Origin: Mucinivorans hirudinis
GTDB lineage: Bacteria; Bacteroidota; Bacteroidia; Bacteroidales; Rikenellaceae
Reading direction: 5' to 3'
DNA length: 24,000 nucleotides
NCBI GenBank assembly: GCA_000723505.1
Contig: HG934468.1
Location: 504,798 to 528,797, forward strand
Of this stretch, positions 1,151 through 21,440 are shown in pieces. The first letter of the stretch is position 1; each line of letters starts with the position of its first letter. Position numbers and translations under genes: made by a program. Under the pieces are notes generated by a model. That model was not told where the DNA came from, made no database searches, and saw only the letters and a list, made by a program, of their open reading frames with translations.

Positions 1151-1425
1151 TTTTTTTTTAAGAACTCGTTCTCTATCTCAAGCTGACCAATCTTGCGATA
1201 AAGATTGTTCTCTACCTGCTCATCAGACTTGACTTTACGCTCCTTGTCAGTCGAGAAAATGGCGGTCGCTCCCTCCTTGAACTGCTTCTTCCATACCCCA
1301 ACCTGCGTCGGATGAACTTCATAAATCGAAGCAATCTCATTGACTGTCTTCAAGCCCTTGATAGCTTCCAAGGCTACTGCCGCTTTGGTCTCTGCCGAAA
1401 TCTTTTTCCTCATAGTTTGTCTCAT
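1126..1425 (-). CDS. IS3-family transposase OrfA (HTH DNA-binding part)
   Basis: A 99-aa ORF ending in the leucine-zipper-like LEIENEFLKKKWELL. It is typical of IS3 orfA and lies immediately upstream of, and overlapping, orfB. M5 (1413) is a possible alternative start. Confidence 0.85.
   Translation of the reverse strand: MRQTMRKKISAETKAAVALEAIKGLKTVNEIASIYEVHPTQVGVWKKQFKEGATAIFSTDKERKVKSDEQVENNLYRKIGQLEIENEFLKKKWELLKSR
1151..1159 (-). promoter_or_regulatory. Programmed -1 frameshift (slippery) site of the IS3 transposase
   Basis: The minus strand reads TTA AAA AAA AAG TGG, a run of nine A before G in the orfA/orfB overlap. This matches the classic A AAA AAG motif of IS3 elements. Confidence 0.7.
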
Positions 1426-1492
1426 TTTTTATGAGACCAAAGATAACCAAATTATAGCTTAAACTGCTGTCCTATTTTGGGGGAGTATTATA

Positions 1493-2197
1493 AAGATTTG
1501 CTTGAGTTTTTGAACTTTTATATATTTCATCAACTTCCTTTGGTTCCAAACTGCTTGCTTGAATAAAGAAGTAGGCATCTCTGAGAGATAGAATGTATTT
1601 CTTTACATATTCGTTTTTGAAATCTAAGAAGTCAATAATTACTCTTCTTATTCCATCTTGATCTGATTGATAGTTACATATGAAATGTTGAAAAACTGAA
1701 TTTTCTTCAATTTTTATTTCCTCTTTTCCACTTATCCAGCTTGTTGTTTTTGCTCCGATTGATTTTATTATTGGTATCAACAAACGGCTTTTAAAATCGT
1801 CCCAAATTGATTTTCCAATCAAATGAGGAAGATGTGTAGTACATAGAGTAAGAAAGAAATTATATGTTTTTTCTTCAATATCAATTTGCTCTGATAACTG
1901 TTGTTTAAAATCTTGATATATACTTTCAGCTAATATATATCCAGTTGGTGTTAATTCTATTTTTGCTGTATTTTTAAGTTTATCTATCTCATTATCGAAT
2001 GTTTGCCTGTTCAAGTTGCTATTTACTTCTTCTGTTAATATCTTAAAGATTTGTTCAGCCGAAATAGGCATATTATCATTATGATGATTGCCAATTGTAG
2101 AAATAATCAAACTTTGGATTGACTTTTCTTGCCATCCAGCTTCATTTAATTTAATGTGATGTATTAAAGAAATAACACCTGAAGACAGTTCTTGCAT
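1493..2197 (-). pseudogene. 5' part of the IS-interrupted AT-rich cargo gene (hypothetical protein)
   Basis: In ORF 1472..2197, only the first 235 codons are native. The last 6 codons (YNTPPK) and the stop are read from the IS3 terminal repeat. Composition is visibly more AT-rich than the tra genes. I recognise no family for the N-terminal 235 aa. Confidence 0.65.
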
Positions 2198-2738: not shown

Positions 2739-3305
2739 TTAGTTTATGATGAATTTCAGCCCTACGCCAAATTGCGTATGGAAATGCCCGATGGAGCTGC
2801 CCCACATTATCCGCTCTCGTGCGTTTACAAGTAGCACCAAACGGTCGGTCAGATAGGTTTCGAGTTCCAGCGTGATAGCTCCGCCATAGATAAAAGCATC
2901 TTTATTGCGGAGTGTTGCCCCGTCAAAGAGCATTTTTTCGCCCCAATTACTCGTTTCGTAACCTGTCAATGCTGAACCCCCGATACTCAAGAAGAAAGTT
3001 TTCGAGGGGTCAGATAGGAATTTGACATAGTAGCCTGCTTCGCCTGTAAACTGAGATTTAGGGATATAAATATCCTTGTAGGCATACTCCTTTGAGAGAT
3101 ACTCCGCACCCAATACCCAGCGATTGCCGTTTTTGGTGTAGGTCGAAAGTCCTGCTCCGAAGTAGTAATTGGTAGGTTTTTGAACTCCGTCCACAAAACC
3201 GCCTTTGAGTTCTATCCCCCGCATTTTCGGGAGATAGCGTTGGGCGTGTGCCTGCCCTGCGGTCAGGGCAAGCAATGCAACCAAAATCATTAGATAACGC
3301 TTCAT
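2739..3305 (-). CDS. traO: Conjugal transfer protein TraO (outer-membrane beta-barrel-like)
   Basis: 188 aa with a signal peptide (...AGQAHAQ) and alternating beta-strand pattern ending in GLKFIIN. It occupies the expected position after traN. Confidence 0.8.
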   Translation of the reverse strand: MKRYLMILVALLALTAGQAHAQRYLPKMRGIELKGGFVDGVQKPTNYYFGAGLSTYTKNGNRWVLGAEYLSKEYAYKDIYIPKSQFTGEAGYYVKFLSDPSKTFFLSIGGSALTGYETSNWGEKMLFDGATLRNKDAFIYGGAITLELETYLTDRLVLLVNARERIMWGSSIGHFHTQFGVGLKFIIN

Positions 3306-3306
3306 A

Positions 3307-4224
3307 CTATTTCACTTTGAGTTCGTTAATAACTCGTGCACGCACGATGTCGTCGTTCTCGATGATGAACGATTGATGACGACCGCCTGACTTTTCGTGA
3401 AGCTCCACGACCAACTGTTTGTCGTCCGGAATGGTGAATTTCTCCATTGTGAATACGGTTCGCTCATCTTTGTTGCCTGCAATGCGTGTGGCATAGTTGT
3501 AGGCACGGAGAGGGAAAATCACTTGTTCTTGAATGGCAGTGCGTTTCGCCACTTTCTTGTCAACAATCTTAAAGACAATGAAATCTACATCGAAAGGTAC
3601 GTTGGAGGTGTTGCGGATTTGTGTATGAAAATACAACAGCCCGTTGTGGGTGTATAGCCCTTTCAGCAGATACTGAATGCCAAAAGACTTTGAGCCGATA
3701 TGCTTTACCTCTCGGTTGTCGTTCTTGTGGATTGACTTCATAATCAGGTGCACGAGTTTCGGCGATTCGCTGCCAAGCTCCTCCAGATAGATATCGAGAG
3801 CATTATTCGGGCGATTGACCGCACTGCCATCGTGGATAAAGTCTTTCATCTCAATGTTTAGCAGCAGCGGTTCATCGGCATATTTTACATTGAATGTGTA
3901 AAAACTGCCGCTCTCGGTAATCACCGAAAAGTTGGTTTCGGTGCGGAAATTCTTAACCGTTGCCTTGACACGGATAACATTCTCCGCTCCGTCCGCCTTA
4001 CCTGCAATAAGGTTAGGCGAACCCAAATCGACGTAGCGAACTGCCGAGGGGAAGATGATGTGCACCGTCTTATCATACGTTACCTCGATACCGTGAGGCG
4101 GTATCATACGGTCAAACGTTACCTTTTTGGTCAGACCGTGATAGAGGTCGCCTGTTGTCTCCTGTGCATTGGCTGCACCGATTACGCCCAGCATCAGGGC
4201 AATAGCTAACATTACTTTTTTCAT
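3307..4224 (-). CDS. traN: Conjugative transposon protein TraN
   Basis: Start taken at MKKVMLAIALMLGVIGAANAQ (codon 13 of ORF 3307..4260). The motif VTYDKTVHIIFPSAVRYVDLGSPNLIAGKADGAENVIRVKA is characteristic of Bacteroidales TraN. Confidence 0.85.
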   Translation of the reverse strand: MKKVMLAIALMLGVIGAANAQETTGDLYHGLTKKVTFDRMIPPHGIEVTYDKTVHIIFPSAVRYVDLGSPNLIAGKADGAENVIRVKATVKNFRTETNFSVITESGSFYTFNVKYADEPLLLNIEMKDFIHDGSAVNRPNNALDIYLEELGSESPKLVHLIMKSIHKNDNREVKHIGSKSFGIQYLLKGLYTHNGLLYFHTQIRNTSNVPFDVDFIVFKIVDKKVAKRTAIQEQVIFPLRAYNYATRIAGNKDERTVFTMEKFTIPDDKQLVVELHEKSGGRHQSFIIENDDIVRARVINELKVK

Positions 4225-4279
4225 TTTTACTATGGATTTTAGTGGGAGGCATAGCCTCATTTGTTTGTAATAAATGTTC

Positions 4280-4519
4280 TTAATTTTTCTGTTGATAAAG
4301 CATCAGGTTATACCCTGCTTTGAGGTGGACTTTGATAATCCGCATCTTCTTGGCAATGTACTGCGAAGTGCCTTGTATCGCCCCTTTGCCGAGGTCGGTC
4401 AGCAGTTGGTCGTCTGCACTCTGTTGCGAGATGTTGATGGAGCTGCCGAGACCTGCACCCATATTGGCGGCAACCTCTTTAATGGCACTCATCTCCATCG
4501 AGCCGGGGATAAAAATGCC
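4280..4519 (-). CDS. traM: traM exon 2 (C-terminal 79 aa of TraM)
   Basis: GIFIPGSMEMSAIKEVAANMGAGLGSSINIS...KVHLKAGYNLMLYQQKN is the conserved TraM C-terminus. The 42 codons upstream in ORF 4280..4645 are read-through of intron domains V and VI. Confidence 0.85.
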   Translation of the reverse strand, partial: GIFIPGSMEMSAIKEVAANMGAGLGSSINISQQSADDQLLTDLGKGAIQGTSQYIAKKMRIIKVHLKAGYNLMLYQQKN

Positions 4520-4582
4520 GTAGGCTAAGCATCCGCTGCCAGTCACCACATTTCTGTGGTAGGATTGCGGATACTCGCCCCC

Positions 4583-4616
4583 GAACCGTACGTACATGTC
4601 TCCACGTATACGGCTC
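4583..4616 (-). ncRNA. Group II intron domain V (intron 1)
   Basis: GAGCCGUAUACGUGGAGACAUGUACGUACGGUUC. This is the canonical 34-nt domain V with the AGC triad and the GUAC...GUAC helix, 19 nt downstream of the IEP stop. Confidence 0.9.
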
Positions 4617-4634
4617 TCCATTAATATCATCAGC

Positions 4635-6458
4635 CTAATTGTCATGTACCCTCTTGTTACAGTGCTCGCATACTACCAGAGTTTTACGGTTCTTTTTCAT
4701 CATTAAACGTTCCCAGTCTTTTTCACCTTTCAATTTCTTGATGTTTTTGACTTGGAACATAACGACTTCACCATTTGCTCCGCAGAGTTCACATTTGCGG
4801 GTTTGCAGTCTTTTTATTAGACTGGGCTCCTTTTGAATGTATCTGCTTGGCAGTAAATCACTGTAAAGGATTTTTGGACACTTTTTCTTGCGTTTGAATC
4901 CTTCATTATAGAATTTCCGATATTTAGTTACTCCTTTTTCATCATTATATGGTATTGCAAACTCTTTATTTATTTTGAACTTGTTTATTACCTTACTGAC
5001 AGAGCTTTCAAGTTTACCGGAGAAAGTTTTATACATACTGTACTCCATAATGTGGTAGAAAGAATTTATGTATCCACTATTGTTTGCTAAAGAGTAGTAA
5101 TTGTAGAACCCTCTGATTTCTGCGTTGTATTTGTCCAGTATATCCAGTAGACTATAGTTTATGAGAAATTTTCTTGCTTTTGACTCCCATGCTTCCTTCC
5201 CTTTCGGGTAGGTGTATTGTATCGCATCATAGCTTTCTAATTTCTGCCTAATAGTATCTGTAGTGATATACAGTACGACTTTACCATTGAACGCACGCTT
5301 TAGTATTCCATTCTTATCTCTTTTGGTATCGTATGATTTACGCACAAAGATGTCGTATCCCAGAAATTTTGCCGGTTCTTTCGCATTGGTTATCAGAGTT
5401 TTTTCTGCGGACAATTCCAATTTCAGACAATTCTCCATATATTGAGAAATATCCTTTTTGAGTTGGATACAATCTGCTTTACTACCCGTAATTCCAATTA
5501 GAAAGTCATCAGCATATCTGACGTATTTTAATCGTCTGTACCTATCATCCATTTCGTTACCATGTGGAATTTTTGTTCTTTCTTTCTCAATTTCTCGAAT
5601 GGAAGAGGCTAATTGCTTTCTTACATTCGGATCTTTTTCGATTTTAAGCTTTGTAGACAGCCGACCTTTTCGCACTGTTAATGTGCCGCTTCTCGTATCT
5701 AATCTCCTTTTCTTTCCACAATCGAAGTTTTGGATATACTCTTTCATGTATTTGTCGAACTTGTCAAGGTAGATATTAGCCAATATTGGGCTAATGATAC
5801 CTCCTTGAGGTGTTCCACTATACGTTCTATGAAATGTCCAGTCTTCGACGTACCCCGCATTCAAGAACTTTCTGATGAGATTTATAAACCGTTCATCATC
5901 AACCCTTTCTTTCAGTATATTTATCAATATTTGATGATTTATATTGTCGAAGAAGCCTTTTATATCTCCTTCGATAAACCATTTTACACCACTGAATGTG
6001 TTTTGAATGTTTGACAATGCAGTATGACAACTTCTTTTTGGTCTAAACCCATGAGAAGAATATTCAAAGTATCCTTCATATATGGCTTCCAATACCATTC
6101 TTATGACTTCCTGCACTAATTTGTCTTCAAAAGAGGGTATTCCAAGTGGGCGTTTTTTGCCGTTTTTCTTTGGAATATAAACCCTCTTTGAAGGGTGTGG
6201 TTGGTACGTCTCATTTTTGAGCGTATCAATTAGATTTTCGATTCGAGACAAACTCATTTGGTCAGCAGTCCTTCCATCTAACCCTTTAGTCATATTCCCT
6301 TGATTTGCATATATGTTCTGATAAGCAACATAATACATCTCTTCGTTGAACATGATACGGTAAAGACGGTTGTACTTATAAGCCGAATTATCGCTATGTC
6401 CCATTAGACTGTTTAATACTTTCTCCGAATTTCTCATAATGTCTCTCACATTTTTCAT
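4635..6458 (-). CDS. Group II intron-encoded reverse transcriptase/maturase (LtrA-like)
   Basis: 607 aa. RT motifs include RPLGIPSFEDKLVQE, GFRPKRSCHTAL, TPQGGIISPILANIYL and YVRYADDFLIG. A maturase (X) region and a Cys-rich C-terminus (CELCG...CEHCNKRVH) follow. Confidence 0.92.
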   Translation of the reverse strand: MKNVRDIMRNSEKVLNSLMGHSDNSAYKYNRLYRIMFNEEMYYVAYQNIYANQGNMTKGLDGRTADQMSLSRIENLIDTLKNETYQPHPSKRVYIPKKNGKKRPLGIPSFEDKLVQEVIRMVLEAIYEGYFEYSSHGFRPKRSCHTALSNIQNTFSGVKWFIEGDIKGFFDNINHQILINILKERVDDERFINLIRKFLNAGYVEDWTFHRTYSGTPQGGIISPILANIYLDKFDKYMKEYIQNFDCGKKRRLDTRSGTLTVRKGRLSTKLKIEKDPNVRKQLASSIREIEKERTKIPHGNEMDDRYRRLKYVRYADDFLIGITGSKADCIQLKKDISQYMENCLKLELSAEKTLITNAKEPAKFLGYDIFVRKSYDTKRDKNGILKRAFNGKVVLYITTDTIRQKLESYDAIQYTYPKGKEAWESKARKFLINYSLLDILDKYNAEIRGFYNYYSLANNSGYINSFYHIMEYSMYKTFSGKLESSVSKVINKFKINKEFAIPYNDEKGVTKYRKFYNEGFKRKKKCPKILYSDLLPSRYIQKEPSLIKRLQTRKCELCGANGEVVMFQVKNIKKLKGEKDWERLMMKKNRKTLVVCEHCNKRVHDN

Positions 6459-7022
6459 TAATTGTATTAAAGATATTAACTGCTCCCCTTCGCCATGTAC
6501 GAGGCTTTCCCTCGCTCAGACTACTACGAGAGCTCCGTTACCATGCTGGATATTCAGAGGCTTCACCTCATAGCCCTTAGGCATTCCAGTTTAGGTAATC
6601 CTCGTTTAGTTGTGTAATAACTTAGCTTGATGAATTGTCGGATACGACTTTCGTCCTTTTATGCTTATTGCAATTGCGTCGTGATAAGTTCCATTGCTCT
6701 AACCTCCAAGAGGGTAAGGTAGAGTATCACGATTAAACGTTATTGTCTAAATTCTTTCAGTCAATATTAACTGCCTTACGTTTTAGCTTACGGTCTAACC
6801 GCTCAGACTATCGTTCAATCAATCCAGATTTTATCCTCATATTCATCGTTTCATCTTGCCATTCAGTCGCAACTTGGCAATTAGTTGACTTATGGCTTTC
6901 CTGACATGCTACACTCCCTGTCGCGTTTCCTTGAACAGATAAGTCAGTTGATGATAGGTTTTTCGAACACTAACCTAATCTCTTGCCAAAGAGATATTTA
7001 TTACACACCCTTACGAGCGCAG

Positions 7023-8201
7023 CTCTTGTCCATCGGAGTCGATAACCGTCAGTGTTACAGGGATAATCAAACCCTCGTATTCGAGTGAGGTGATTGAGAT
7101 ACCGAGCCGTTCGCCTTGAATCTTCGCCATTCCGGTAACGAGTGCATTGCGTGGGACAATAGTTTCGCCAGCTCTCATCGGTTCGAGTAGTCGCATTCTG
7201 ACTGCCTGACCGTCCGTAATGGTTTGGTTATCGTGAATGCACGCTTTAATCGTGTTCTTCTCCGACTTACCCTCCGTGCCGACTGCCGTGTGAAAACCCA
7301 TATTTCGCTCCTGTGAGTAGTCGGCAATGAATTCCGAATCGCTAACAGGTTGCGTAAGTCCCGACACAATCCGCTGCTGAACCTGACCGATAGGGGTCAT
7401 TTGTGCCTTGCCGTTTTTGTAGGCTTCTACGGGTTTGGCGGTTTCAGTTATCGAAACAGTGGGCTGTGTCGGTGGCGTTGCTCCGCTCTGACCTGACGGC
7501 AGATACTTCGCTGCCAATTCGTATGACTTCTCCATAAGGGCAAGTTGCTCATCCATTGCATTGCGTGGCGACTCTGCCTGTTCCAATCGTGCGTTCAGCT
7601 CCTCCAACTTCAACCGCATCTCCTCCTTTTGCATAAATTCGGCGTCGTTCGGCAATCCAAGCCTATGGCTTGATTGCTCTCTCTCCTTAGAATTTTCAGG
7701 GTCTTCTTTGGGTGTTTCGTAGAAATTACCCAAGGTGCGATTGATGTCCTGATAGGCATTTGCCGAGGCATAGATGGTTTCACGAGGTCGGGAGCTTCCG
7801 CCACCACTGCCATAGCTGCGTTGCGGCTCGGTGTAGGGTTCGGAATAGTCCTCTTCGTATTCATCATCGCTGCCAAACATAGAGGCTAAATCCTGCATCT
7901 GAGAGCGACGCTCCTCTTGCTTACGATCCATTAAATCCTGCTCGTAGGCAGCTTGTTTGTCTCCGACCATCTGTTTATTAGTGGGTGAGGGAACTTCGGT
8001 ATTGTAGCCTGCCTGCTCCTGCTCTTTCGCCTTATCCTCGTCTGAGGGTGCAAAAATCAGCCACATAGCACCTACGAACATTGCCACCATCAGCGGATAG
8101 ATAAATAGCTTCTTGCGTTTCTGACGCTCCGCTTCGGTCAGCTCCTTACGTGGTTTGTCAGGCTCACTGTGAGCCTTTGTTTCAATCTTGTTTTCGTCCA
8201 T
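7023..8201 (-). CDS. traM: traM exon 1 (N-terminal 393 aa of TraM)
   Basis: MDENKIETK...KKLFIYPLMVAMFVGAMWLIF (TM segment)...AKIQGERLGISITSLEYEGLIIPVTLTVIDSDGQE. The ORF continues 3 codons (LRS) into the intron before a stop at 7011. Confidence 0.85.
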
Positions 8202-8460
8202 TGTTGTTGAAATTAAATTGGTTAATACTATCTTTTTGTTGCAGCTTCAGCCCCTCGATGTGTTCAATTTCGATACGTTGCCCCTCGTTTTTGCCTATCT
8301 GATAGATTGCCGAAACGAATATGTAGAGCGAGGTGATTCCGAACACGGCAAACATTAGAAGGATGACCGCCAGCCGCTTTTCGGGGGTTATCCGTCCGCA
8401 CAGGTGGCGAAGTTTATCTTCAGTCCAATCCTGAATTTTGATTACTATGCGGCGTATCAT
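8182..8460 (-). CDS. traL: Conjugative transposon protein TraL
   Basis: 92 aa with a single TM segment. It lies between traK and traM, with overlapping stop/start junctions typical of the operon. Confidence 0.7.
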   Translation of the reverse strand: MIRRIVIKIQDWTEDKLRHLCGRITPEKRLAVILLMFAVFGITSLYIFVSAIYQIGKNEGQRIEIEHIEGLKLQQKDSINQFNFNNNGRKQD

Positions 8461-9080
8461 CGCTTTTGCGTTTTGATGTCCTTATTCTCGACCACCTCAA
8501 AGGCTTCGATGATAAAGCCGTGAGGGTTGTTGTCTGAGCGGACAGAGTTCAATAGGTTACATTTTGTAACCAGACTACGCTCGGTGACGTTGCTCTCTCG
8601 GATAATCATCTGACGTGCATAGGTATTGACCTTGTACGGATATGTATCAAAGTTGCACGCTACACTATCCACCTGCACCACCTGATTGACGTTGCCGGCG
8701 ATAATGCGGTTGTAATACCCCTTTTCGGCAAAGTCGGTGTAGTAGTTAAATGCACTTTTGTCTGCCAAGAGCAGTGCTCGTTTGATGTTGCTCTCAATCG
8801 CATTTTTATCGGGCGAGAGGGTGAAAAATAGCTCGTGAAAACGCTTGACGTGTTCTCGTGCTTCGACAGGTCGGTTTTGCGACAAGTCTTGCGAGAGGGC
8901 GAGCATCAACGATTTGCCACCGTCCAACACGTAAATCTTTTGGCGTTGTGCTTCGGCAAATGTGTAGGAGCTCCAAATGGAGTATCCCGCAATGCCTACG
9001 CACAAGCTGATGAAGATGATAGCGAAGAGGCGTATCTGCTTGAAACTGCTCTCGATGTTTTTTAATGACTTAAATTCCAT
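8457..9080 (-). CDS. traK: Conjugative transposon protein TraK
   Basis: 207 aa. MEFKSLKNIESSFKQIRLFAIIF... plus a TM segment matches the remembered TraK N-terminus. It sits immediately after traJ. Confidence 0.85.
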   Translation of the reverse strand: MEFKSLKNIESSFKQIRLFAIIFISLCVGIAGYSIWSSYTFAEAQRQKIYVLDGGKSLMLALSQDLSQNRPVEAREHVKRFHELFFTLSPDKNAIESNIKRALLLADKSAFNYYTDFAEKGYYNRIIAGNVNQVVQVDSVACNFDTYPYKVNTYARQMIIRESNVTERSLVTKCNLLNSVRSDNNPHGFIIEAFEVVENKDIKTQKR

Positions 9081-9100
9081 TGCTTTTTTATTTTTACATT

Positions 9101-9125
9101 TCTAATAAAAGGGTCTGTGACCCCC
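9101..9125 (-). repeat. Copy B of a conserved ~24-nt motif with a GGGTC/GACCC mini-hairpin, upstream of traK
   Basis: Plus strand TCTAATAAAAGGGTCTGTGACCCCC. It matches 17696..17718 with one indel and one mismatch. It ends about 20 nt upstream of the traK ATG. Confidence 0.7.
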
Positions 9126-9141
9126 TGCGGTGGCTCACCGT

Positions 9142-9660
9142 TTATTTACCAAGAAGGCGACCTGAGATATTTCCTGCTGCCGCACCTGCTCCGGCTCCTG
9201 CCATTGAGCCTGCTTTGCCAGCGGTTGAGTTGACATTCTTGCCATAATTGCCTGCACCACCCGATTGGATAATCCACCCTGCTACGGTAGGAATGGTGAA
9301 GTAGCCGATGATGCCGATAATCATAAATACCAGATACACACCGTTGCTCGCTTCAATCGAAAAGTTGGGGTTATTCTGCAATTCGGATATATCGTTTTGG
9401 AGCATCAAGACTTGAATTTTGGCAAGTATGGAGCTGAACAGATCCGACACGGGTAACCACAGATAGACCGAAATGTATCGTGTTATCCATTGAGTTAACG
9501 TACTCTGGAAACCGTCCCAGACCGAAATTGCGAAAGCGATTGGTCCTAAAATGGCAAGGACAATCAGAAAGAAGGTGCGGATAGTGTCTATCACGAGTGC
9601 TGCTGCCGCAAAGAGCAGTTCGAGCAGCTCTCGAAACCAATCCCTCATCGACTTTTTCAT
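9142..9660 (-). pseudogene. traJ: traJ 3' fragment (C-terminal ~170 aa of TraJ)
   Basis: MKKSMRDWFRELLELLFAAAALVIDTIRTFFLIVLAILGPIAFAISVWDGF... is the conserved second half of TraJ. An IS separates it from the first half. Its ATG lies in the duplicated ATGAAA. Confidence 0.85.
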
Positions 9661-9931
9661 CTGTGTATATTTTTGTATTAATTTGTATAATAGCTATTTA
9701 AGGTATAATTAAGAGATTAAATTTTCATCTTCGTACTCCGTGCCTATAAAGGCAGTGGTAACACCTGTTGGTTCTTAATTTTGTGCCCAAATCTCTTTGG
9801 ACATAGGTCAATTTCATACTCAAGCTCTTCTAAGGGAAGTCTCAGAAAAAATGCGACCTATGTTGTTGCCTTAAATATAATGCTTGCTTAAAACGAAATA
9901 AAAAATGTAGCTTGGTGAGATGCAGCCCATT
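9661..9931 (-). ncRNA. Candidate bridge RNA / seekRNA in the 3' non-coding end of the IS110-family element
   Basis: A 270-nt non-coding stretch lies downstream of the recombinase. It holds three copies of the flanking hexamer ATGAAA. It has a 10-nt identity to the left junction (9809..9818 = 11231..11240) and a 9-nt identity to the right junction (9722..9730 = 9654..9662). An 8-bp stem CATAGGTC...GACCTATG encloses one of these matches. Confidence 0.45.
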
Positions 9932-11157
9932 TCATAAAAATACACTAACATCAACACCTAATGCCGATAAACGATTCAAATAGTTCCGTATCTGCTTCTT
10001 CTGCTTGCGAGGATTTTTGTCGTGTAACTCAGGCTCACGATATGGTTGTTTGTTCAACAAAATGAAGTATGCGGCTACAATAATTTTATGCCCAATGGCT
10101 ACAAGTGCTCGCTTCTTACCTCGTCTGCCTACCAAACTCTCATACTTTCGCTTCAAATAGCAATCCTTCTTACGTGTCGCCCCCCACCCACACTCTACCA
10201 ATATCGAAGTAATATGGCTATTACCCTTTATGGTCTTTGTACTTTTTTTTTACCGGCACTCTCATTATTGCCCGGACTTACACCACAATAAGAACTTAAA
10301 TGGTTCTCATCAGGAAATCGTTCCATATCAACACCTATCTCGCTTATAATACCAATGGCACTATCTCGCCCAACACCCGGTATGGTCTCTAATAGCTCCA
10401 ATTCAACTTCATAATCAGAAACAGCCTTGGCTATTTCTGCATCCAACCGCTCTAACATAGCGTCATCATTAGCTATCACATCTCGATGAAACTGCAACAT
10501 AAAACGATGATGATAGCTAACCTTACCTTGCAAAGCTTTGACAAACTCACTACGAGGCGTCTTTATCTTGCCGTGATAAAACCGCATTAATTGATTTACA
10601 TCACTCTCTCCATCTATCAATGCACTGATGATATTGCGACCAACGGCTCCATCAACATCACTCAATACACTTGATAACTTGATATTGCAATCCTCCAATA
10701 TCTTGATTATACGATTCTTCTCTGATGCACTATGAGCTACTAACTTCTTCTTGTAGCGAACTAAATCTCGTAAATCTCTTATGTCGCGTGGAGGGATAAA
10801 GCTACCCTTGAGTAGTCCGCTTACCAATAATTTGCTCAACCATTTGCTATCCTTCTTGTCGGTCTTATGACCAGGCACATTCTTTACGTGCCGAGCATTA
10901 ACCAAAAGAACCTCAAAATCATCCTCCAAAATATTGAATACAGGCTTCCAATAAACACCCGTGCTCTCCATTGCAATATGAGTTACGCCCTCATCTTTGC
11001 ACCAATCTCGCAACGATTCCAATGAAACGGTAAAACCGTCAAACTCCTTTGTGCCGACAACTTCGTTGCCTCGCTGAATAGTTGCAACTATCAAATCCTT
11101 ATGGACATCAATCCCGCAACCAACCCCAATGTAGGGGGTAAATAGTATCTCTTCCAT
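9932..11157 (-). CDS. IS110-family DEDD/serine recombinase (transposase), split by a frameshift in an A9 run
   Basis: N-terminal RuvC-like motifs GIDVHK, MESTGVYW and HKTDKKD are present. The C-terminal domain reads ...GVSPGNNESAGKKK then continues in the -1 frame as STKTIKGNSHITSILVECGWGATRKKD... ORFs 10228..11157 and 9932..10201 join at the homopolymer 10243..10251. Confidence 0.85.
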
Positions 11158-11224
11158 TGAACATAGTGTTAGTTAATCAATAGGCAAAGATACTCATCTC
11201 TGTTGGTATGCTCAAAATTTGAGA

Positions 11225-11734
11225 TTATGACAATTTCATATTATACATACCTCGTTCGATATACATCCCCGTCATCGTCATCATATCACCCGGACTCCAG
11301 CCGAGTTCTTCCAACTGTTTGTCGAACTCCTCATTGGAGACTAAATAAGCTGTTTCGGGATTACGCATCATAGCTTCGTATTCGAGTTTATCCTTTTGTT
11401 GTCGGTACTTGTTCATATCCATCGTCTGCGACTCAAGCATCTGATGTGTACCTTTGACAACAGGCGACATTACGCCGTTAATCGTTCCAAGCACGAGCGA
11501 GGGGAAGAACATAATGCAGATGCCGATAGCAAATGGACGGAGCATTGGATATACATCAATCGGTTCGGCACGAGCCAAGGATTGCCACACACGGGAGGCA
11601 ACATAAATCAAGGCTCCGAGTCCGGCGATACCCTTTGCGATACCTGCCATATTGCCGCACAGGGGCATCATCTCTACATACAGATTTCGTAGAATCTGGT
11701 GCAGGTTTGAAAAATCTACTGATAACATCATCAT
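11225..11734 (-). pseudogene. traJ: traJ 5' fragment (N-terminal 167 aa of TraJ plus 2 IS-derived codons)
   Basis: ...FSNLHQILRNLYVEMMPLCGNMAGIAKGIAGLGALIYVASRVWQSLARAEPIDVYPMLRPF...GMYIERGMYNMK is the conserved first half of TraJ. The frame then reads L-S-stop inside the IS. Confidence 0.85.
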
Positions 11735-11737
11735 TGC

Positions 11738-12169
11738 TTACCAGTATCTATCGTTAGCATTGCCGTAGAGAGCCATCACACGGTCAGTGTCGCCCTGCTT
11801 TTGGGCACGTAGGTAGCTGACGGAGATGTTTTTGTTGGTGTAGTATCCCACCAAATTGCGGTACTGTTTCACCGAGTTGTAACAGCGATCTACCACATCC
11901 ATTCGCTCCTTGTCACTCATCGAGAGGGTCGAGATATTAACCACCGATTTGAGTTCATTGAGCACTCCTGCGCTCTCTTCCAAGAGTTTGGCGTACCCAA
12001 AGGCGATTGCCCCCAACTCCTCGACACGGTAATTCGGGTCTCGGAGCATTCGCTGAAAGTTCACTACATAGATGTCCGAGATTTCGCCAATCATTAGGAT
12101 AGTCTGCTGTACCTTGCGAGCGTCCTTAACAAGATTATTTACAGCCTTTAACGCATCGTAATACTTCTT
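11738..12169 (-). CDS. traI: traI exon 2 (C-terminal 143 aa of the DUF4141-type transfer protein)
   Basis: KKYYDALKAVNNLVKDARKVQQTILMIGEISDIYV...YTNKNISVSYLRAQKQGDTDRVMALYGNANDRYW matches the remembered C-terminal two-thirds of Bacteroidales TraI/DUF4141 proteins. The 41 upstream codons of ORF 11738..12292 are intron domains V and VI. Confidence 0.8.
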   Translation of the reverse strand, partial: KKYYDALKAVNNLVKDARKVQQTILMIGEISDIYVVNFQRMLRDPNYRVEELGAIAFGYAKLLEESAGVLNELKSVVNISTLSMSDKERMDVVDRCYNSVKQYRNLVGYYTNKNISVSYLRAQKQGDTDRVMALYGNANDRYW

Positions 12170-12210
12170 GTCGGGTAGGTCGGGGACATTGCTGTCCCTT
12201 TCCCCCCTAA

Positions 12211-12244
12211 GAACCGTACGTGATACTTTCGCATCATACGGCTC
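12211..12244 (-). ncRNA. Group II intron domain V (intron 2)
   Basis: GAGCCGUAUGAUGCGAAAGUAUCACGUACGGUUC. This is the canonical 34-nt domain V with a GAAA tetraloop. Confidence 0.9.
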
Positions 12245-12281
12245 AAGCAACTCAAAATTCATAATATGAATTTGACTCATT

Positions 12282-13949
12282 TTATCTTCCATTTTTATTA
12301 GACTTCATTCTCCATTTGCGGCAATCATCGTGAAACAATACCTTTTCCGTTTTGCCGTTTACCAATCTCTCGGTAATACTCCACGGGGTGCTTTTTCTGA
12401 TAGGTTCGCCACAAATTACACATCTGCGTTTTTGCTTTTCCCACATCCGTACAATGACACTTTTGCCATTGGCTGATAGCAACATTTGACGGGTTTCCCT
12501 CTTGTCAAAGTATGCTTTCCAATCGGTGTCATAGGGATTGGCATCGCATTTGAGTTTGGCATATCGGGTTACTTTTGTGTCAGATAACCTTTTGACAGAG
12601 TGGTAAGTCACTGCTCCGTTCTCTTGGTGTTTTACAGCAAAAGTCCAGCTTCTGCCTCTGACGTTGTGGAAATATTTATCCGCAACCCAATGTTTCCCTT
12701 TGGCAGGGTGTCGCCTTAACGACCATTGCATAAGTTTTCGATAAATCTCGAAATCCATTCTTTGGAACGTCTTTGCAGTAACACAATGCTTATAGTAGTT
12801 TACCCACCCCGTTATTACGGGGTTGAGAAGTCGGATTAGGGATTCCTGCGGTATAGCTTTATGGTCATTGATAATGCCCCTTAACTTTTCGAGGAATTTC
12901 TTTTGTCCTGCCTTAGAGGGTTTGATTAACAGCACTCCTTTGTACTTACGAATGTTGAAGCCAAGAAAGTCAAAACCTTCGTCAATGTGAGTTATCTTCG
13001 TCTTCTCTTCTGATAGGGTAAGTCCCCGTACTTGAAGAAACTCTTTGACCATTGGCATAATCTCTTGTTCTAACATCTCCTTGTTTCTGCTGGTGATTAC
13101 AAAATCGTCGGCATAGCGGATGAGATGTACTTTCGGGTAGTACGACCTTTTAGGGCTGTATAAATCGACTCTCTTAAACTTTTCTTCGAGCATTGTTTGC
13201 AAGCCGTCAAGGGTAATATTTGCCAGAGTTGGGGAAATGATGCCTCCTTGCGGAGTACCCTCTTCTGTTGGGAAAAGCTCATTGTTGAATACGAAGCCGC
13301 ATTTTAACCACTTTTGTAGCATCACCCTATCCATAGGGATATTGTTTAGCAGCCATTCGTGGCTAATGTGGTCGAAGCAACCTTTGATGTCTCCCTCCAA
13401 AATCCATTGCGGAGATGATTCTTTTGACAGATTAATGAAGCATTGATGAATAGCATCACCCGTACATCTCTCCTTGCGGAATCCGTATGAGTGATTGTCT
13501 GCCGTGGTTTCAGCCACGGGGTCTAATGCCATTAAATAAAGTGCCTGCATTGCTCTGTCTTTCATCGTTGGTATTCCCAATGGACGTAACTTCCCATTAC
13601 TCTTTTTGATATTTACCCGTCTGAGCGGTTGAGGCGTATAACCCCGTCTTTTGAGTTCCTTAATAGCATTAACTTTTGCATTTGGTGAGTGCCAAAGAAC
13701 TTTGTCAACTCCCGATGTGTTTTTGCCTTTGTTGGAAGTCACTCGTCTTATTGCCAATACTTTGGCATAATACGAGTGAGTGAGTATCCACTGTAAAGAT
13801 TTGACCTTACCGTGTTTACCCTCTTTTTGAGCCTTTACAATACGTGCTTGTAGCTTACGAACTTCAGTTTCGCACTTGTTCCAGTCGATACTTTCCCAAG
13901 TGGTTGACTTGCTGTCAGTAGATGCACACGATGTCTTAATTTCGTTCAT
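12282..13949 (-). CDS. Group II intron-encoded reverse transcriptase/maturase
   Basis: 555 aa. RT motifs include LRPLGIPTMKDRAMQ, SYGFRKERCTGDA, TPQGGIISPTLANITL and IRYADDFVITS. A maturase region (GWVNYYKH) and a short Cys/His C-terminus (CVICG...HDDC) follow. Confidence 0.92.
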   Translation of the reverse strand: MNEIKTSCASTDSKSTTWESIDWNKCETEVRKLQARIVKAQKEGKHGKVKSLQWILTHSYYAKVLAIRRVTSNKGKNTSGVDKVLWHSPNAKVNAIKELKRRGYTPQPLRRVNIKKSNGKLRPLGIPTMKDRAMQALYLMALDPVAETTADNHSYGFRKERCTGDAIHQCFINLSKESSPQWILEGDIKGCFDHISHEWLLNNIPMDRVMLQKWLKCGFVFNNELFPTEEGTPQGGIISPTLANITLDGLQTMLEEKFKRVDLYSPKRSYYPKVHLIRYADDFVITSRNKEMLEQEIMPMVKEFLQVRGLTLSEEKTKITHIDEGFDFLGFNIRKYKGVLLIKPSKAGQKKFLEKLRGIINDHKAIPQESLIRLLNPVITGWVNYYKHCVTAKTFQRMDFEIYRKLMQWSLRRHPAKGKHWVADKYFHNVRGRSWTFAVKHQENGAVTYHSVKRLSDTKVTRYAKLKCDANPYDTDWKAYFDKRETRQMLLSANGKSVIVRMWEKQKRRCVICGEPIRKSTPWSITERLVNGKTEKVLFHDDCRKWRMKSNKNGR

Positions 13950-14559
13950 TTGCTTTTCTGCTTTAGTAAGTTCTTAAAGTTTCTTGTAAAGTGTTACCTT
14001 ACGCGGAAGTCTGCCCACTTTCGTGTGGAGTGATGTCTCAACTCCTATCCGCTCCATTACAGAGCGACGTTCGCTTTTTCCGCAATCCTATACCCGCACT
14101 CCATTCGGCTTATCTTGCGACTTGCTTACCTATCAACTGATAGGAGAAATACGGGCTTACCACGTTTTACATAAGTGACGAATGAGTGACTTAGGTTCTG
14201 TCTATACACCGGCAGTCGTTGTGTCCGTGTAATCTCACAAGGTTCGAGATTATCCGACTGCGCACCATTTTGGTTCAAGCCTGTCAGCATAATTTGGCTT
14301 GTTTCATACGTTACGATGCGTCAATAACAGTTCATTTGCATTAACCATATCACTCAGCCTCGCTCCCCAACCCCCTAATGCTGGCGGTCATTGCTTCTGC
14401 CTCACGGCTTCTGCTTTTCCTTGCGGAAGGGCTACTTTGTCTGGGTAGCTTCGTACAAACCAATCACTTGAAATGCACGTACCCATAGGCTACTACTGAC
14501 GGAACAGTAGGTTTAATCTTGTTGTTAAACAATCACTTATGCAACTATACGTGTCGCAC

Positions 14560-14757
14560 GCCCTGCTCGTAAATCTTCACGGTCTCCTTGAAATTGTTTA
14601 TCATATTCGAAGCCGTCGAGGAGGTTTGCACAATCTGTTTAGTGGTGTTTACTATACCCTGTGCAAGATTGGCAGGGTCGAACACCGCCCATTGTGCATT
14701 GGCTTTGCCGACAAAAAAGAGACAGACGGCAAAAAGCATTAAAATTTTTGTTCTCAT
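14560..14757 (-). CDS. traI: traI exon 1 (signal peptide plus N-terminal 66 aa)
   Basis: MRTKILMLFAVCLFFVGKANAQWAVFDPANLAQGIVNTTKQIVQTSSTASNMINNFKETVKIYEQG. The ORF then reads VRHV-stop from the intron 5' end GUGCGACACGUAUAG. Confidence 0.8.
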
Positions 14758-14769
14758 CGTTTGTTGGAT

Positions 14770-15138
14770 TTATTCGTTAATACTTGCTCTGGTGTAATCT
14801 CCATTTGGCGAGAAGGTCAGTACATCGGTTGCCTCGTTGTACGCCACATCGATCCGAAAACCTGTGTTGAAGAAGAGATTTTCTCCCTCTCGGACTATCA
14901 GATAGGTTTCGGGCTTGACTTTTCGGGTTACGCCTGAGCGTTTGAAAATGGTTATTTTGTACTGCTCGCCCTCTTTGAAGATGAGCACGTCGGGCTTACC
15001 GCCTATGCTCACCCAGTTGCCGCATAACTTGTTCAAATCGGGCTCTTTCACCTCTGCGCAAGCGGTCAGCAGTAGCGAAGTCAGGACAAGGGCATAGCCA
15101 GCCAACTCTAAAAGTCGGCTCTTTGAAATGGTTGTCAT
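14770..15138 (-). CDS. traH: Small lipoprotein at the TraH position (DUF3876-like)
   Basis: 122 aa with lipobox LLLTAC. It lies between traG and traI. The name is assigned by gene order only. Confidence 0.6.
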   Translation of the reverse strand: MTTISKSRLLELAGYALVLTSLLLTACAEVKEPDLNKLCGNWVSIGGKPDVLIFKEGEQYKITIFKRSGVTRKVKPETYLIVREGENLFFNTGFRIDVAYNEATDVLTFSPNGDYTRASINE

Positions 15139-15152
15139 AATGTTGATTGTTC

Positions 15153-17657
15153 TTAAGTTTTACTTCGTTTTTTGTCGGCAAGCTGTTTGATTGCCAACTC
15201 TATATCACCTCCCAACTTCTCGGCAAGGTTCAGCACCTCAATCTTTTCGGTCTCCTCGGTGGTGTAGGTTAGATACTCCTCTGCCGACACTTCTGTGGCA
15301 TAGACTGCCGAGTGCGTACCGCCGAGTCCGATCCATACCTCTTTGTAGAGTCGTGAGGGGTTGTTCGCCTGATTGATAGAGAGTATCTGACCACGTTCTT
15401 TTTCGGTCAAACCCAGCAGGGCTTGAATAGAGCCGAACTTGTTCATGTACTTGCGTTGGTCGAGCAAGATTTTACAGTCAGAGTTATTGATAATCGCCTC
15501 CTTGACTACAGGGCTGGAGATAATATCATCCACCTCCTGCGTTACGACAATGGCTTCCCCGAAGTATTTACGGACAGTTTTGTACATATATTTCAGATAC
15601 TCAGCCATTGACGGAGAGGACAACGCCTTCCAAGCCTCTTCCACAATGAGCTGTTTGCGAATACCTTTCAAGCGACGCATTTTGTTGATAAATGCCTCCA
15701 TTATGATAATCGTCACCACAGGGAAAAGCTCCTTGTTCTCTTTTATGGCATCAATTTCAAAGACTATAAAGCGTTTACTGAGTAGGTCGATATTCTTATC
15801 GGAGTTGAGCAGAAAATCAAATCGTCCACCACTGTAATACTGGCGCAGCGTAGTGAGGAAATTGTCGATATTAAAGTCCGCTTTGCTCACCTTAATATCT
15901 CTGTTTTCCAACTCCGTGCGGTAGTCGTCTCGCATAAATTCGTAGAAGCTATTGAAATTCGGAACGATACTGCGGTCATCTTTGATACGGTTGATGTAGG
16001 CGGTTACCGCACTACCTAACTCGCCACTTTCCGTTTTGGAAATTTTATCCTCTTCGCTCTTCCACAAGGTCAGCAACAGTGTCTTGATACTGTCCTTTTT
16101 CTCCACATCGAAATGGTAATCATCGGTGAAAAAGGGATTAAAACTAATCGGATTCTCCTCCGTGTAGGTGAAATACACACCATCGTCTCCTTTGGTCTTT
16201 TTGTGTATCATCTCACACAAACCCTGATAGCTGTTACCCGTATCGACAAGCACCACGTGCGTGCCCTGCTCGTAGTATTGGCGGACAAGGTGGTTCATGA
16301 AGAAAGATTTACCGCTTCCCGACGGTCCCAAAACAAATTTGTTTCGGTTGGTCGTGATGCCTCGCTTCATCGGCAAATCGGAGATGTCGATATGGAGCGG
16401 TTTCCCTGTCAATCTATCTACCATTTTAATTCCGAATGGTGACGGTGAAGATTGGTAGTTGGTCTCTTGCGTGAAGAAACAGACCGCCTGTTCGATGAAC
16501 GTATAGAACGATTCTTCCGAGGGAAAATCCGCCTCATTGCCCGGAATACCAGCCCAAAATAGTGTCGGCGTATCAACGGTGTTGTGTCGGGGCTTGCACT
16601 CCATTTGTGAAAGTTGCGACCCCACATCGTTTTTGATATGCTTCAACTCCTCACGGTCGTCGCTCCACGCCATCACATTGCAGTGGCAACGTACCGAGGT
16701 GAGCCCGTAGCTGTGCGCTTCGTTCAGATATTGGTCAATCCACTCCTTGTTGATTTGGTTCGAGCGGCTGTACTTCGATAGCGAGTGCATATTCTTGGCT
16801 GCTTTCTCAAACTTTTGCAGATTGGCGGCACTGTCATCAATAAACACAAACTGATTATAGATGTGGTTGCACGACAACAGCAGTCCAACAGGAGCGGCAA
16901 ACGAGAGACGGCAGTCGCTTCTATCCGTTGAGAGTTTCTCGTATCGCATATCAGTGGCGGCACGGCTTGGCATATCCTCCGCATCGGAAAGCGTATGCAA
17001 ACAGATATAGTTGTCGCCGATTTTCATTTCATCGGCTGCCAGTGCTATATCCTGCAAACAGGTTGTATCACTTTGCGACAGCGAAAAATACTTTTCAATA
17101 ATCCCCGCTTCGCTATCCGTTCCGACAATTTCGTCAGAGGTCAGGCGGTGCAGCTTCACAAATCCGCTCTCATTCATAATGCTTGCGAATTGCCCAACCG
17201 CCTCAATAAACTTCGTTACCGTTTCGGTGTCCTTAATCTCTTTCGGGATGATGAACCCACGACACAGCGTTGAAAAGTTGCTTTGCGTGCGGCTACGCTC
17301 CTTGGTTGTTTTCGTCAGAAATAAGTAGCAGTAGTGATTTAGATAGGGTCGCTCATTGAAATGACGCTCAAAAGACCGGCTCAAAAAACTCATCTCCCCG
17401 TCTATTTGTGGTTGGTACTCCTCACGGATAAAAATATCCTGTTTGTGGACGATGCTGTAATCGGGCAATACTTTCATCGCCTTGACCCAAGCCGAGTGTA
17501 CAGCTTCGTACTCCGCTGACGTTACGGTGTAGAGTTCGGGCAGCTCCACCCGAAACCCTACCGTCACATCAGCATCTTTGCTCACGATACAATCGTGTTC
17601 CACAGAGAGTAGCGGAAACTTACTCTCTAATGTGGTTGCTTTTAATGTATTTCTCAT
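15153..17657 (-). CDS. traG: TraG, VirB4-family type IV secretion ATPase
   Basis: 834 aa. It has Walker A GPSGSGKS, a Walker B-like LIVFEID / VEEAW, and the typical N-terminus ...LESKFPLLSVEHDCIVSKDADVTVGFRVELPE. Confidence 0.92.
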   Translation of the reverse strand: MRNTLKATTLESKFPLLSVEHDCIVSKDADVTVGFRVELPELYTVTSAEYEAVHSAWVKAMKVLPDYSIVHKQDIFIREEYQPQIDGEMSFLSRSFERHFNERPYLNHYCYLFLTKTTKERSRTQSNFSTLCRGFIIPKEIKDTETVTKFIEAVGQFASIMNESGFVKLHRLTSDEIVGTDSEAGIIEKYFSLSQSDTTCLQDIALAADEMKIGDNYICLHTLSDAEDMPSRAATDMRYEKLSTDRSDCRLSFAAPVGLLLSCNHIYNQFVFIDDSAANLQKFEKAAKNMHSLSKYSRSNQINKEWIDQYLNEAHSYGLTSVRCHCNVMAWSDDREELKHIKNDVGSQLSQMECKPRHNTVDTPTLFWAGIPGNEADFPSEESFYTFIEQAVCFFTQETNYQSSPSPFGIKMVDRLTGKPLHIDISDLPMKRGITTNRNKFVLGPSGSGKSFFMNHLVRQYYEQGTHVVLVDTGNSYQGLCEMIHKKTKGDDGVYFTYTEENPISFNPFFTDDYHFDVEKKDSIKTLLLTLWKSEEDKISKTESGELGSAVTAYINRIKDDRSIVPNFNSFYEFMRDDYRTELENRDIKVSKADFNIDNFLTTLRQYYSGGRFDFLLNSDKNIDLLSKRFIVFEIDAIKENKELFPVVTIIIMEAFINKMRRLKGIRKQLIVEEAWKALSSPSMAEYLKYMYKTVRKYFGEAIVVTQEVDDIISSPVVKEAIINNSDCKILLDQRKYMNKFGSIQALLGLTEKERGQILSINQANNPSRLYKEVWIGLGGTHSAVYATEVSAEEYLTYTTEETEKIEVLNLAEKLGGDIELAIKQLADKKRSKT

Positions 17658-21168: not shown

Positions 21169-21440
21169 ATCCGTCCCCCTGACGGATTTTTATGTTCATC
21201 GGAACATAGCAAGGTGTCTTTTGAGTTACTCAAAAGGCAATGGGTTACTCCCATCGCACCTTGCTCTTGCAGAGGGCTGGGTTATTTACTCGGAACTCGT
21301 AAATAACTCGGTGTCGCCGTGGCGACCCTCCGAAGTCGGAAAGCCCTTTTTCATACCTGCGGTAGGCGTTAAGCGGTGGCTTATGTGGCGAAACCACAAA
21401 ATTCTTAGGAGCGAAGGCAAACGAGCTTGCTCGGTTTGCT
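21169..21440 (+). promoter_or_regulatory. Candidate oriT / mob promoter region, a cluster of hairpins
   Basis: Inverted repeats: AATCCGTC/GACGGATT (21169..21189, then T-run), ATGTTC/GAACAT (21193..21208), CTTTTGAG/CTCAAAAG (21219..21237), GTTATTTAC/GTAAATAAC (21282..21308), GTCGC/GCGAC (21314..21327) and GCAAACGAGC/GCTCGGTTTGC (21418..21440). They lie immediately upstream of mobA, where CTnDOT-type oriT sites are found. The nic site was not identified. Confidence 0.4.

Follow-up and report, generated by a model that had tools for sequence, protein, structure and literature searches.

Why would three transfer genes of a single operon each be interrupted by a different mobile element? This question is raised by a stretch of 24,000 nucleotides of the Mucinivorans hirudinis M3 genome (hereafter, the window; contig HG934468.1, positions 504,798 to 528,797), whose proteins are CDN30647-CDN30673. 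M. hirudinis is a leech-gut bacterium whose PacBio single-contig assembly contains more than 200 mobile-element open reading frames (ORFs) (PMC4319616). On the minus strand of the window, from about 20675 to 2299, there is a CTnDOT-type transfer operon of a conjugative transposon (CTn), in which traI and traM are interrupted by group II introns and traJ by an insertion sequence (IS) of the IS110 family. An earlier note on this DNA proposed that the encoded type IV secretion system (T4SS) would need two splicing events plus either IS excision or complementation by the two TraJ halves, which it regarded as an exceptional three-point gate; its alternative was a decaying integrative and conjugative element serving as a safe harbour for retroelements. 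The reading that I consider probable, and hold with good confidence, is that one copy of a multi-copy CTnDOT-family transposon was colonised independently by three selfish elements of known kinds.

Are the interruptions real, and are their boundaries exact? Each of the three lies in a different tra gene and in the sense orientation (minus strand, the same as the operon), as first described; Rfam, Pfam and TIGR profiles and an in-silico repair all agree with that description. Removal of the elements in silico left clean ORFs for TraI (209 aa), TraJ (337 aa), and TraM (472 aa). By blastn, 80 related genome loci are collinear exactly across 4519/7023, 9660/11234 (with a 6-bp overlap), and 12169/14560, and the codon-level empty sites of relatives agree with all predicted junctions. 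The two splice junctions proposed earlier, 7023/4519 and 14560/12169, are exact. The upstream exon ORFs run a few codons into the introns and then stop, adding VRHV in traI (14559-14548) and LRS in traM (7022-7011). Annotation pipelines therefore call "proteins" of 70 and 396 aa at these places, and the fixed ORF lengths are useful database markers for intron-bearing alleles. Two sets of sequences were available for comparison: 160 related loci (L001-L160) from genome and metagenome scans, and five sibling copies of the tra region (L170-L174) in the assembly ERZ28675667, with 90-97% nucleotide identity, which were reached via the cluster of the 396-aa ORF of TraM exon 1.

Do the three insertions travel together? 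In the window copy, both introns are present, traJ is split by the IS110-type element, and the other tra genes are undamaged. Three siblings (L170, L171, and L173) also have both introns, together with an intact traJ of 332 aa; traO is split in L171 (14897-15824), and traG is truncated by an IS4-like element in L173 (2804-4468). L174 has the traM intron and an intact 332-aa traJ, and its traI is an uninterrupted 209-aa gene with no intron. L172 is a truncated copy that lacks traI; it has the traM intron, and its traJ is truncated by an IS256-like element (7405-9101). In summary, all five siblings carry the traM intron. Of the four that retain a traI gene, three have the traI intron, and none of the four with a complete traJ contains the IS; the IS in traJ belongs to the window copy only. 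The comparison with related transposons, which had been suggested as a check, therefore revealed empty sites directly: the traI of L174 has no intron, and the traJ of four siblings has a single ATGAAA. It did not reveal a shared set of three insertions. The three insertions are independent events. As a separate observation, attrition by IS elements appears to be general in this transposon family in Mucinivorans, as the lesions of L171, L172, and L173 illustrate. No element identical to that of the window was found in the searched collections; when the repaired TraJ was used to scan genomes and metagenomes, the relatives obtained had at most 90% amino acid identity. The accession numbering fits a second M. 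hirudinis transposon copy in which both introns are present and traJ is unbroken, since CDN30472 and CDN30478 (one protein of each intron, see below) are six gene numbers apart, versus nine for their counterparts in the window.

How recently did the introns arrive? The traI intron of the window is 99.87-99.96% identical to those of L170, L171, and L173, and the traM intron is 99.92-100% identical to those of L170-L174; for both introns, this amounts to 0-3 differences per about 2.4-2.5 kb between the window and the siblings. The neighbouring exons are 80-98% identical (traM exon 1, 93.9%; traG, 89%; the 5′ part of traJ, 82%; traN, 89-98%), those adjoining the traM intron being 4-6% divergent, and the exon differences start 9-17 nt from the intron junctions. 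Near-identical introns in diverged exons point to a recent invasion by retrohoming, and the sharp boundaries argue for retrohoming rather than long-tract gene conversion. The simplest reading of these alignments would be that both introns swept recently into already diverged copies by retrohoming. For the exons, dS is 0.14-0.62 and dN/dS is 0.03-0.06. These ratios show past purifying selection but are silent on function after the introns arrived, because the exons had diverged long before. Retrohoming needs forward splicing and lariat formation. Introns that spread in this way must therefore splice, and both introns probably splice in vivo. Other signs of competence are the intact intron-encoded proteins (IEPs), their YADD motifs, and their full-length matches to LtrA and to the T.el4h reverse transcriptase (RT).

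The two introns, described earlier as unrelated, are of different lineages, IIA/mitochondrial-like (ML) and IIB/chloroplast-like (CL); their IEPs are about 31-33% identical. In traI, exon 1 (14560-14757, minus strand, with the ATG at 14757) comprises 66 codons and ends with ...TACGAGCAGGGC directly before GUGCGAC. The intron that follows is 2,390 nt in length (12170-14559, minus strand) and of the IIB/chloroplast-like type; Rfam recognised its domains I-IV as RF02012 (14511-14363, 121.8 bits) and its domains V-VI as RF00029 (12246-12170, 68.7 bits). Its ends fit the consensus GUGYG...AY, with GUGCGAC at 14559 and CCCGAC ending at 12170. The IEP of 555 aa (12282-13949, minus strand) is intact, with the Pfam domains RVT_N, RVT_1, and GIIM and a YADD motif, while Pfam found no endonuclease domain in it. 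Among solved structures, its closest relative is that of the T.el4h maturase/RT (6me0; E 9e-174). Since the IEP aligns with the T.el4h RT, the intron is classified as a IIB intron of the T.el4h-like/CL lineage. M. hirudinis has this protein in two identical copies (CDN30478 and CDN30661), and the 90% cluster has 137 members. Exon 2 (11738-12169, minus strand) comprises 143 codons and a stop codon. Joined to exon 1 (14757-14560 + 12169-11738), it gives a 209-aa TraI that is 98% identical to the uninterrupted 209-aa TraI of L174, a sibling element of 94% identity, with the junction exactly as predicted. The predicted ligated junction is TACGAGCAGGGC/AAGAAGTATTAC, also written GATTTACGAGCAGGGC/AAGAAGTATTACGATG, and the empty traI sites of relatives read KIYEQG/KKYYDA.

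The target recognition of the traI intron can be followed in its relatives. Its exon-binding site 1 (EBS1) is the hairpin loop ACCUUGU, inside the stretch GAACCTTGTGAG (14245-14234), and forms six of seven pairs with the exon sequence GCAGGGC, the intron-binding site 1 (IBS1) of the window. The EBS1 of this family covaries with IBS1 in relatives at other insertion sites: in L043, the loop ACCUUGU forms 7/7 pairs with ACAAGGU, L105 has CCAUUCU with 7/7 pairs to GGAGUGG, and L077 has CCCUUGU with 6/7 pairs. No convincing assignment was obtained for EBS2 or EBS3 of the traI intron.

In traM, the profile TIGR03779 is broken at position 333/334. Exon 1 (7023-8201, minus strand; 393 codons) matches it up to position 333 and ends with ...GGACAAGAG, its IBS1 being CAAGAG, and exon 2 (4280-4519, minus strand; 79 codons and a stop codon) covers positions 334-410. 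Joining of 8201-7023 and 4519-4280 gives the 472-aa TraM, with the predicted ligated junction GGACAAGAG/GGCATTTTTATC, also written GATGGACAAGAG/GGCATTTTTATCCC. The intron (4520-7022, minus strand) is a IIA LtrA-like intron of 2,503 nt. Its domains V-VI match RF00029 (4618-4520; 61.6 bits, gathering threshold 40), domain VI has a bulged branch A (CUU-A-GCC) 7 nt from the 3′ end, and the 3′ end is of the AY type (..CCUAC). The intact IEP of 607 aa (4635-6458, minus strand) has the Pfam domains RVT_1, Intron_maturas2, and AI2M-like_HNH and a YADD motif. LtrA (5g2x) matches it over residues 23-604 with an E-value of 2.5e-147, and because this alignment with the LtrA of Ll.LtrB runs end to end, the intron is assigned to the IIA/ML lineage. 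The M. hirudinis genome encodes the identical sequence twice (CDN30472 and CDN30652). EBS1 (CUCUUG, 6712-6707) pairs perfectly with IBS1, which comprises the final six bases of the exon (6/6 pairs), and the adjoining delta nucleotides CC (6714-6713) pair with the GG of the 3′ exon. No confident assignment was obtained for EBS2 of the traM intron.

The start of the traM intron, CUGCGCU, deviates from GUGYG at position 1 only (7022 in the window; position 11180 in L170-L174). A C residue at +1 was found in six of six traM intron copies in two assemblies, versus a G residue in eight of eight related introns at other tra sites (GUGCGCC). Shifted traM splice sites that would place G at +1 were considered and rejected; they need either a broken reading frame or a non-AY 3′ end. 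They are further excluded by the IBS1-EBS1 pairing, which stops exactly at 7023.

What split traJ? The 5′ part of the gene (11234-11734, minus strand; residues 1-167) matches positions 1-161 of the 323 positions of TIGR03782 and has an ATGAAA core at 11239-11234; its ORF (11734-11225) runs two codons into the IS (..NMKLS, then a stop codon). The 3′ part (9142-9660, minus strand; residues 166-337) matches positions 160-323 and has the second ATGAAA core at 9660-9655. It is an intact ORF that opens at an internal Met codon, whose ATG is regenerated by the IS. TraJ is thereby split at residue 167, in a hydrophilic stretch before the C-terminal membrane segments. As products, the two TraJ halves are predictions from ORFs, and any function would be putative. 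Between the two cores lies the IS of 1,573 bp (9661-11233, minus strand). The earlier assignment to the IS110 family stands: the transposase has a DEDD/RuvC-like domain at its N terminus (DEDD_Tnp_IS110, PF01548; E 3.1e-27) and a C-terminal Transposase_20 domain (PF02371; E 5.1e-14). The left end of 76 nt and the right end of 271 nt correspond to the arrangement of the IS1111 group, in which a short left end is combined with a long right end carrying a guide RNA, and IS110 family members excise scarlessly as circles (PMC11208160). ATGAAA is present at both IS junctions of the window and once in the empty sites of L170, L171, L173, and L174, with no other target duplication. The predicted circle junction is ...AATATACACAG-ATGAAA-TTGTCATAATCTC..., and the predicted IS-free traJ sequence is ...GGTATGTATAATATGAAAAAGTCGATGAGG.... 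The 309-aa ORF of this IS has at least eight copies in the M. hirudinis genome, according to accession lists. A 97% identical copy of the IS in L161 has the left flank TATGATATGAAA, which is similar to the TATAATATGAAA of the window.

The IS lacks the single uninterrupted transposase ORF of its family. The 309-aa ORF (11157-10228) breaks at a run of nine A residues (A9; 10243-10251, minus strand), and the downstream frame continues to 9932. A -1 shift or one additional A at this run restores a 408-aa transposase, in line with thousands of full-length homologues of 404-430 aa. The same split at A9, into 305 and 112 aa, was found in 72% identical relatives of the IS (L162-L169, and dozens of independent short-read assemblies). 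From this recurrence, the split looks programmed, neither a lesion nor a sequencing error, and it suggests programmed ribosomal frameshifting or transcriptional slippage. A literature search found no description of slippage in the IS110 family.

The right ends of these IS relatives (L162-L169) abut ATGAAAAAR, the start of co-oriented genes beginning with Met-Lys-Lys: a sulfatase gene, a saccharopine-dehydrogenase-like gene, and two genes for signal-peptide proteins. The target in the traJ of the window is an internal M166-K-K (ATGAAAAAG), a mimic of such a start. Judging from these flanks, the IS lineage may target gene starts. The 271-nt non-coding right end (9661-9931) is a candidate region for a guide (bridge/seek) RNA. 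It has partial complementarities, namely UAUGAAAUUG (core and left end), AGAUGAAAAUUUAAUCUC (resembling the circle junction), and UAUUAUACA (complementary to the left flank of the target), and a fold z-score of -2.1; k-mer matching and folding yield hints only. Rfam gave no bridge RNA match in the IS, and a scan of the IS region for sigma-70 promoters and terminators, which was not designed for Bacteroidota promoters, was uninformative. The possible programmed slippage and the possible targeting of Met-Lys-Lys start codons bear on the current interest in bridge-RNA recombinases.

Are such introns peculiar to this locus? Introns in these tra genes are common. About 19 of the 160 related loci (about 12%) carry an intron of either lineage in traG, traI, or traN. 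The LtrA-like lineage occupies two sites in traG, residue 72 of traI, and a site in traN, and the T.el4h-like lineage occupies residue 66/67 of traI, which is the site of the window, and three sites in traG. The most frequent host gene of both lineages in other elements is traG, and L105 and L050 have two introns within it. An intron that is 86% identical in nucleotides was found at the same traI site in unrelated metagenomes, where traJ and traM are intact. Counted together, the two lineages occupy at least 10 distinct sites of traG, traI, traM, and traN in Bacteroidales conjugative transposons, with EBS1 matching each site; examples of intron-bearing loci are L075, L050, L045, L073, L117, L077, L055, and L105. 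Group II introns have been reported in 9% of conjugative T4SSs (PMC7306698). In Bacteroides, the synteny of a CTn family is disrupted by introns or ISs (PMC8759732), and ltrA-type genes lie beside traG in B. thetaiotaomicron (PMC10434189). These papers deal with this same family of transposons and with the phenomenon seen here, although the introns appear there only in gene lists or in passing mention. A literature search found no site-by-site description of these introns in Bacteroidales tra genes. The earlier view of three-point gating as an exceptional arrangement is not supported by this comparison, as the insertions do not co-occur and introns in conjugation genes, even in pairs, were already published.

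Such a published pair is found in pAW63 of Bacillus thuringiensis, which has two introns in tra genes (PMC1196294). As in the window, two different group II introns (B.th.I1 and B.th.I2) interrupt two transfer genes, and intact homologues, on sister plasmids in the case of pAW63, serve as empty sites. In contrast, pAW63 is a plasmid of Gram-positive bacteria that lacks an ORF in one of its introns and carries no additional IS in a third gene, whereas both introns of the window encode proteins and their lineages are spread over many Bacteroidales elements. The traM intron resembles Ll.LtrB, which lies in the ltrB relaxase gene of pRS01 and the Lactococcus sex factor, in being a IIA intron that encodes RT, maturase, and HNH domains and sits in the sense orientation in a gene of a conjugative element. 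Since both are inserted in this orientation in a host gene, the expression of the host gene depends on splicing. Ll.LtrB modulates relaxase expression and conjugation (PMC6003770, PMC7293003). Unlike Ll.LtrB, the traM intron lies in a mating-pore gene rather than a relaxase gene, belongs to a CTnDOT-type element of Bacteroidota, starts with C instead of G, and is known from sequence alone. The IS is like the IS1111 group and IS492 in its DEDD and Transposase_20 domains, its short left and long right ends, its shared core, its similar targets, and its multiple copies. It differs from them in the transposase split at A9 that needs a -1 shift and in the target inside a coding gene at an internal Met-Lys-Lys, and its guide RNA is a candidate only.

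On the reading of independent colonisation, transcription of the tra operon would produce a precursor from which each intron would excise with its own maturase, and excision would restore the 209-aa TraI and 472-aa TraM frames. Alleles of traI or traM in other transposon copies that are still free of the intron could then be invaded through reverse splicing by the excised lariat-protein particle, and both intron lineages are specialised in conserved sites of Bacteroidales tra genes. The traJ gene was hit separately by an active multi-copy IS110/IS1111-type element recombining at the ATGAAA core. This insertion most likely abolishes autonomous transfer, except where scarless excision of the IS, or an intact TraJ from a sibling in the same cell, makes up for it. 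The introns are probably harmless passengers, while the IS would be a copy-specific knock-out that has most likely caused the loss of autonomous transfer; reversal or complementation would be possible in principle.

Several points weigh against this reading. The traM intron has C, not the near-universal G, at position 1, and Peebles et al. reportedly found in 1993 that a change at position 1 slows splicing in model introns. In the traI intron, EBS1 does not pair with the final nucleotide of the exon. The close relatives yielded no traM allele free of the intron, and the traM site is seen only in the Mucinivorans copies; this site appears, from the loci compared, to be particular to Mucinivorans. 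The second M. hirudinis copy is read from accession numbers, and the essentiality of TraJ is assumed from its conservation in this type of T4SS.

Could the copy simply be dead? In that case, the traM intron with C at +1 would no longer splice, and the near-identity of the introns would have arisen by DNA duplication or gene conversion. The departure from the G found in all eight relatives would suit such a plain decay. So would a host genome full of mobile elements, the sibling copies truncated by IS256-like and IS4-like elements, the split TraO of one of them, and an IS3-family element that lies just past traQ in the window. However, across six copies whose exons are 4-6% divergent, the 2,503 nt of the traM intron are 99.92-100% identical, and exon differences within 9-17 nt of the junctions are expected of retrohoming, not of duplication or gene conversion. 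Moreover, no damage is seen in the IEP ORFs, domains V-VI, EBS1, or delta, and no stop codon or frameshift was found in the other tra genes of the window. I therefore regard plain decay as unlikely. The alternative of a decaying element as a safe harbour can accordingly be divided: the safe harbour is closer to the evidence, while the word "decaying" suits the IS hit and does not suit the introns.

A different combination of the same features would make the copy silenced yet recoverable. The traM intron with C at +1 would be a naturally attenuated splicer that throttles production of the pore protein TraM, and the IS would be a scarlessly reversible off-switch of traJ, with the C-terminal half of TraJ still translatable from the regenerated ATG. 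I consider this improbable.

Another reading is a coordinated gate kept by selection, in which two splicing events would be combined with either reversible IS excision or the assembly of TraJ from two halves. Parts of this idea hold: splicing of both introns is probable, and the IS110 family excises scarlessly, IS492 being a known excision-based switch (PMC11208160). The IS also regenerates an ATG-AAA start right before the 3′ half of traJ, relatives of the IS sit likewise before genes that are presumably still expressed, and the effect on conjugation ascribed to Ll.LtrB in the sources cited above offers a precedent. The gate as a whole is unsupported. The insertions are unlinked, as the siblings carry either one intron or both but lack the IS, and relatives elsewhere have the traI intron alone. 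The IS is present in at least eight genome copies, and unrelated ISs have hit the sibling copies destructively. The transposon copies are far older than the introns, and the combination thus shows no sign of long-term selection. A selected three-point gate is thus very improbable, and what interrupts the three genes is a set of accumulated parasites rather than a new regulatory design. Chimeric joins of repeats in a long-read assembly have a negligible chance, even though the genome is repeat-rich, the PacBio data are early, and the A9 frameshift is an error type that long reads can make: an assembly chimera is excluded by identical intron-exon junctions in an independent assembly, the junctions lie exactly at the codon-level empty sites of 70-80 relatives, the expected duplicated core flanks the IS, and the A9 split recurs in short-read assemblies of relatives.

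The most unusual features are the C residue with which an evidently mobile intron starts, the range of tra-gene sites that the two intron lineages use, and the transposase split at a slippery run. Through the first of these, the traM intron offers a natural experiment on what the first nucleotide does. In a wider sense, retroelements use conserved transfer genes of conjugative transposons for homing, and the intron lineages sweep through transposon copies far faster than the copies diverge. For gene flow among gut Bacteroidota, this means that split tra genes in annotations are not to be taken as dead elements.

The remainder of the operon is typical of the CTnDOT type, with an ordered series of tra genes matching family profiles and a divergent mobilisation and relaxase module. 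The order is traA (ParA-like), two DUF3408 genes, a gene at the traD position, traE (DUF4134), traF (DUF4133), traG, a DUF3876 gene, traI, traJ, traK, traL, traM, traN, traO, and traQ. The divergent module (MobC_2, relaxase, and coupling protein) starts at 21427 on the plus strand, and the coupling-protein gene, which starts at about 23160, continues past the window edge. The integrase and excision module and the ends of the element are located beyond the window. Profile matches were obtained for TraG, DUF3876, TraJ, TraK, TraL, TraM, TraN, TraO, TraQ, DUF4133, DUF4134, DUF3408 (twice), ParA, MobC_2, and Relaxase, those of the tra and mob genes that are not interrupted being full-length; PADLOC gave no match for the protein at the traD position. 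All of the following genes are on the minus strand and intact. The traG gene (15153-17657) encodes a VirB4-type ATPase of 834 aa (Pfam P-loop_TraG, 1-412 of 413, and DUF3875), and the gene at the traH position (14770-15138) encodes a DUF3876 protein of 122 aa (Pfam DUF3876, 2-92 of 92). They are followed, beyond traI and traJ, by traK (8457-9080; TIGR03781, 1-202 of 202) and traL (8182-8460; Pfam TraL_transposon), and, beyond traM, by traN (3307-4260; TIGR03780, 1-285 of 285), traO (2739-3305; Pfam TraO, 1-168 of 168), and traQ (2299-2805; Pfam TraQ_transposon, 2-132 of 133).

The IS3-family element past traQ (296-1425, minus strand) is the fourth mobile element of the window. It has the usual two-frame arrangement, in which a 99-aa helix-turn-helix ORF is followed by an overlapping 284-aa rve-integrase ORF. 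Between this element and traQ lies a 241-aa ORF (1472-2197, minus strand) in a low-GC stretch (about 32%), for which neither Pfam nor PADLOC gave a match. In the sibling transposon copies, DUF3873, PcfJ, and PcfK genes are found in its place.

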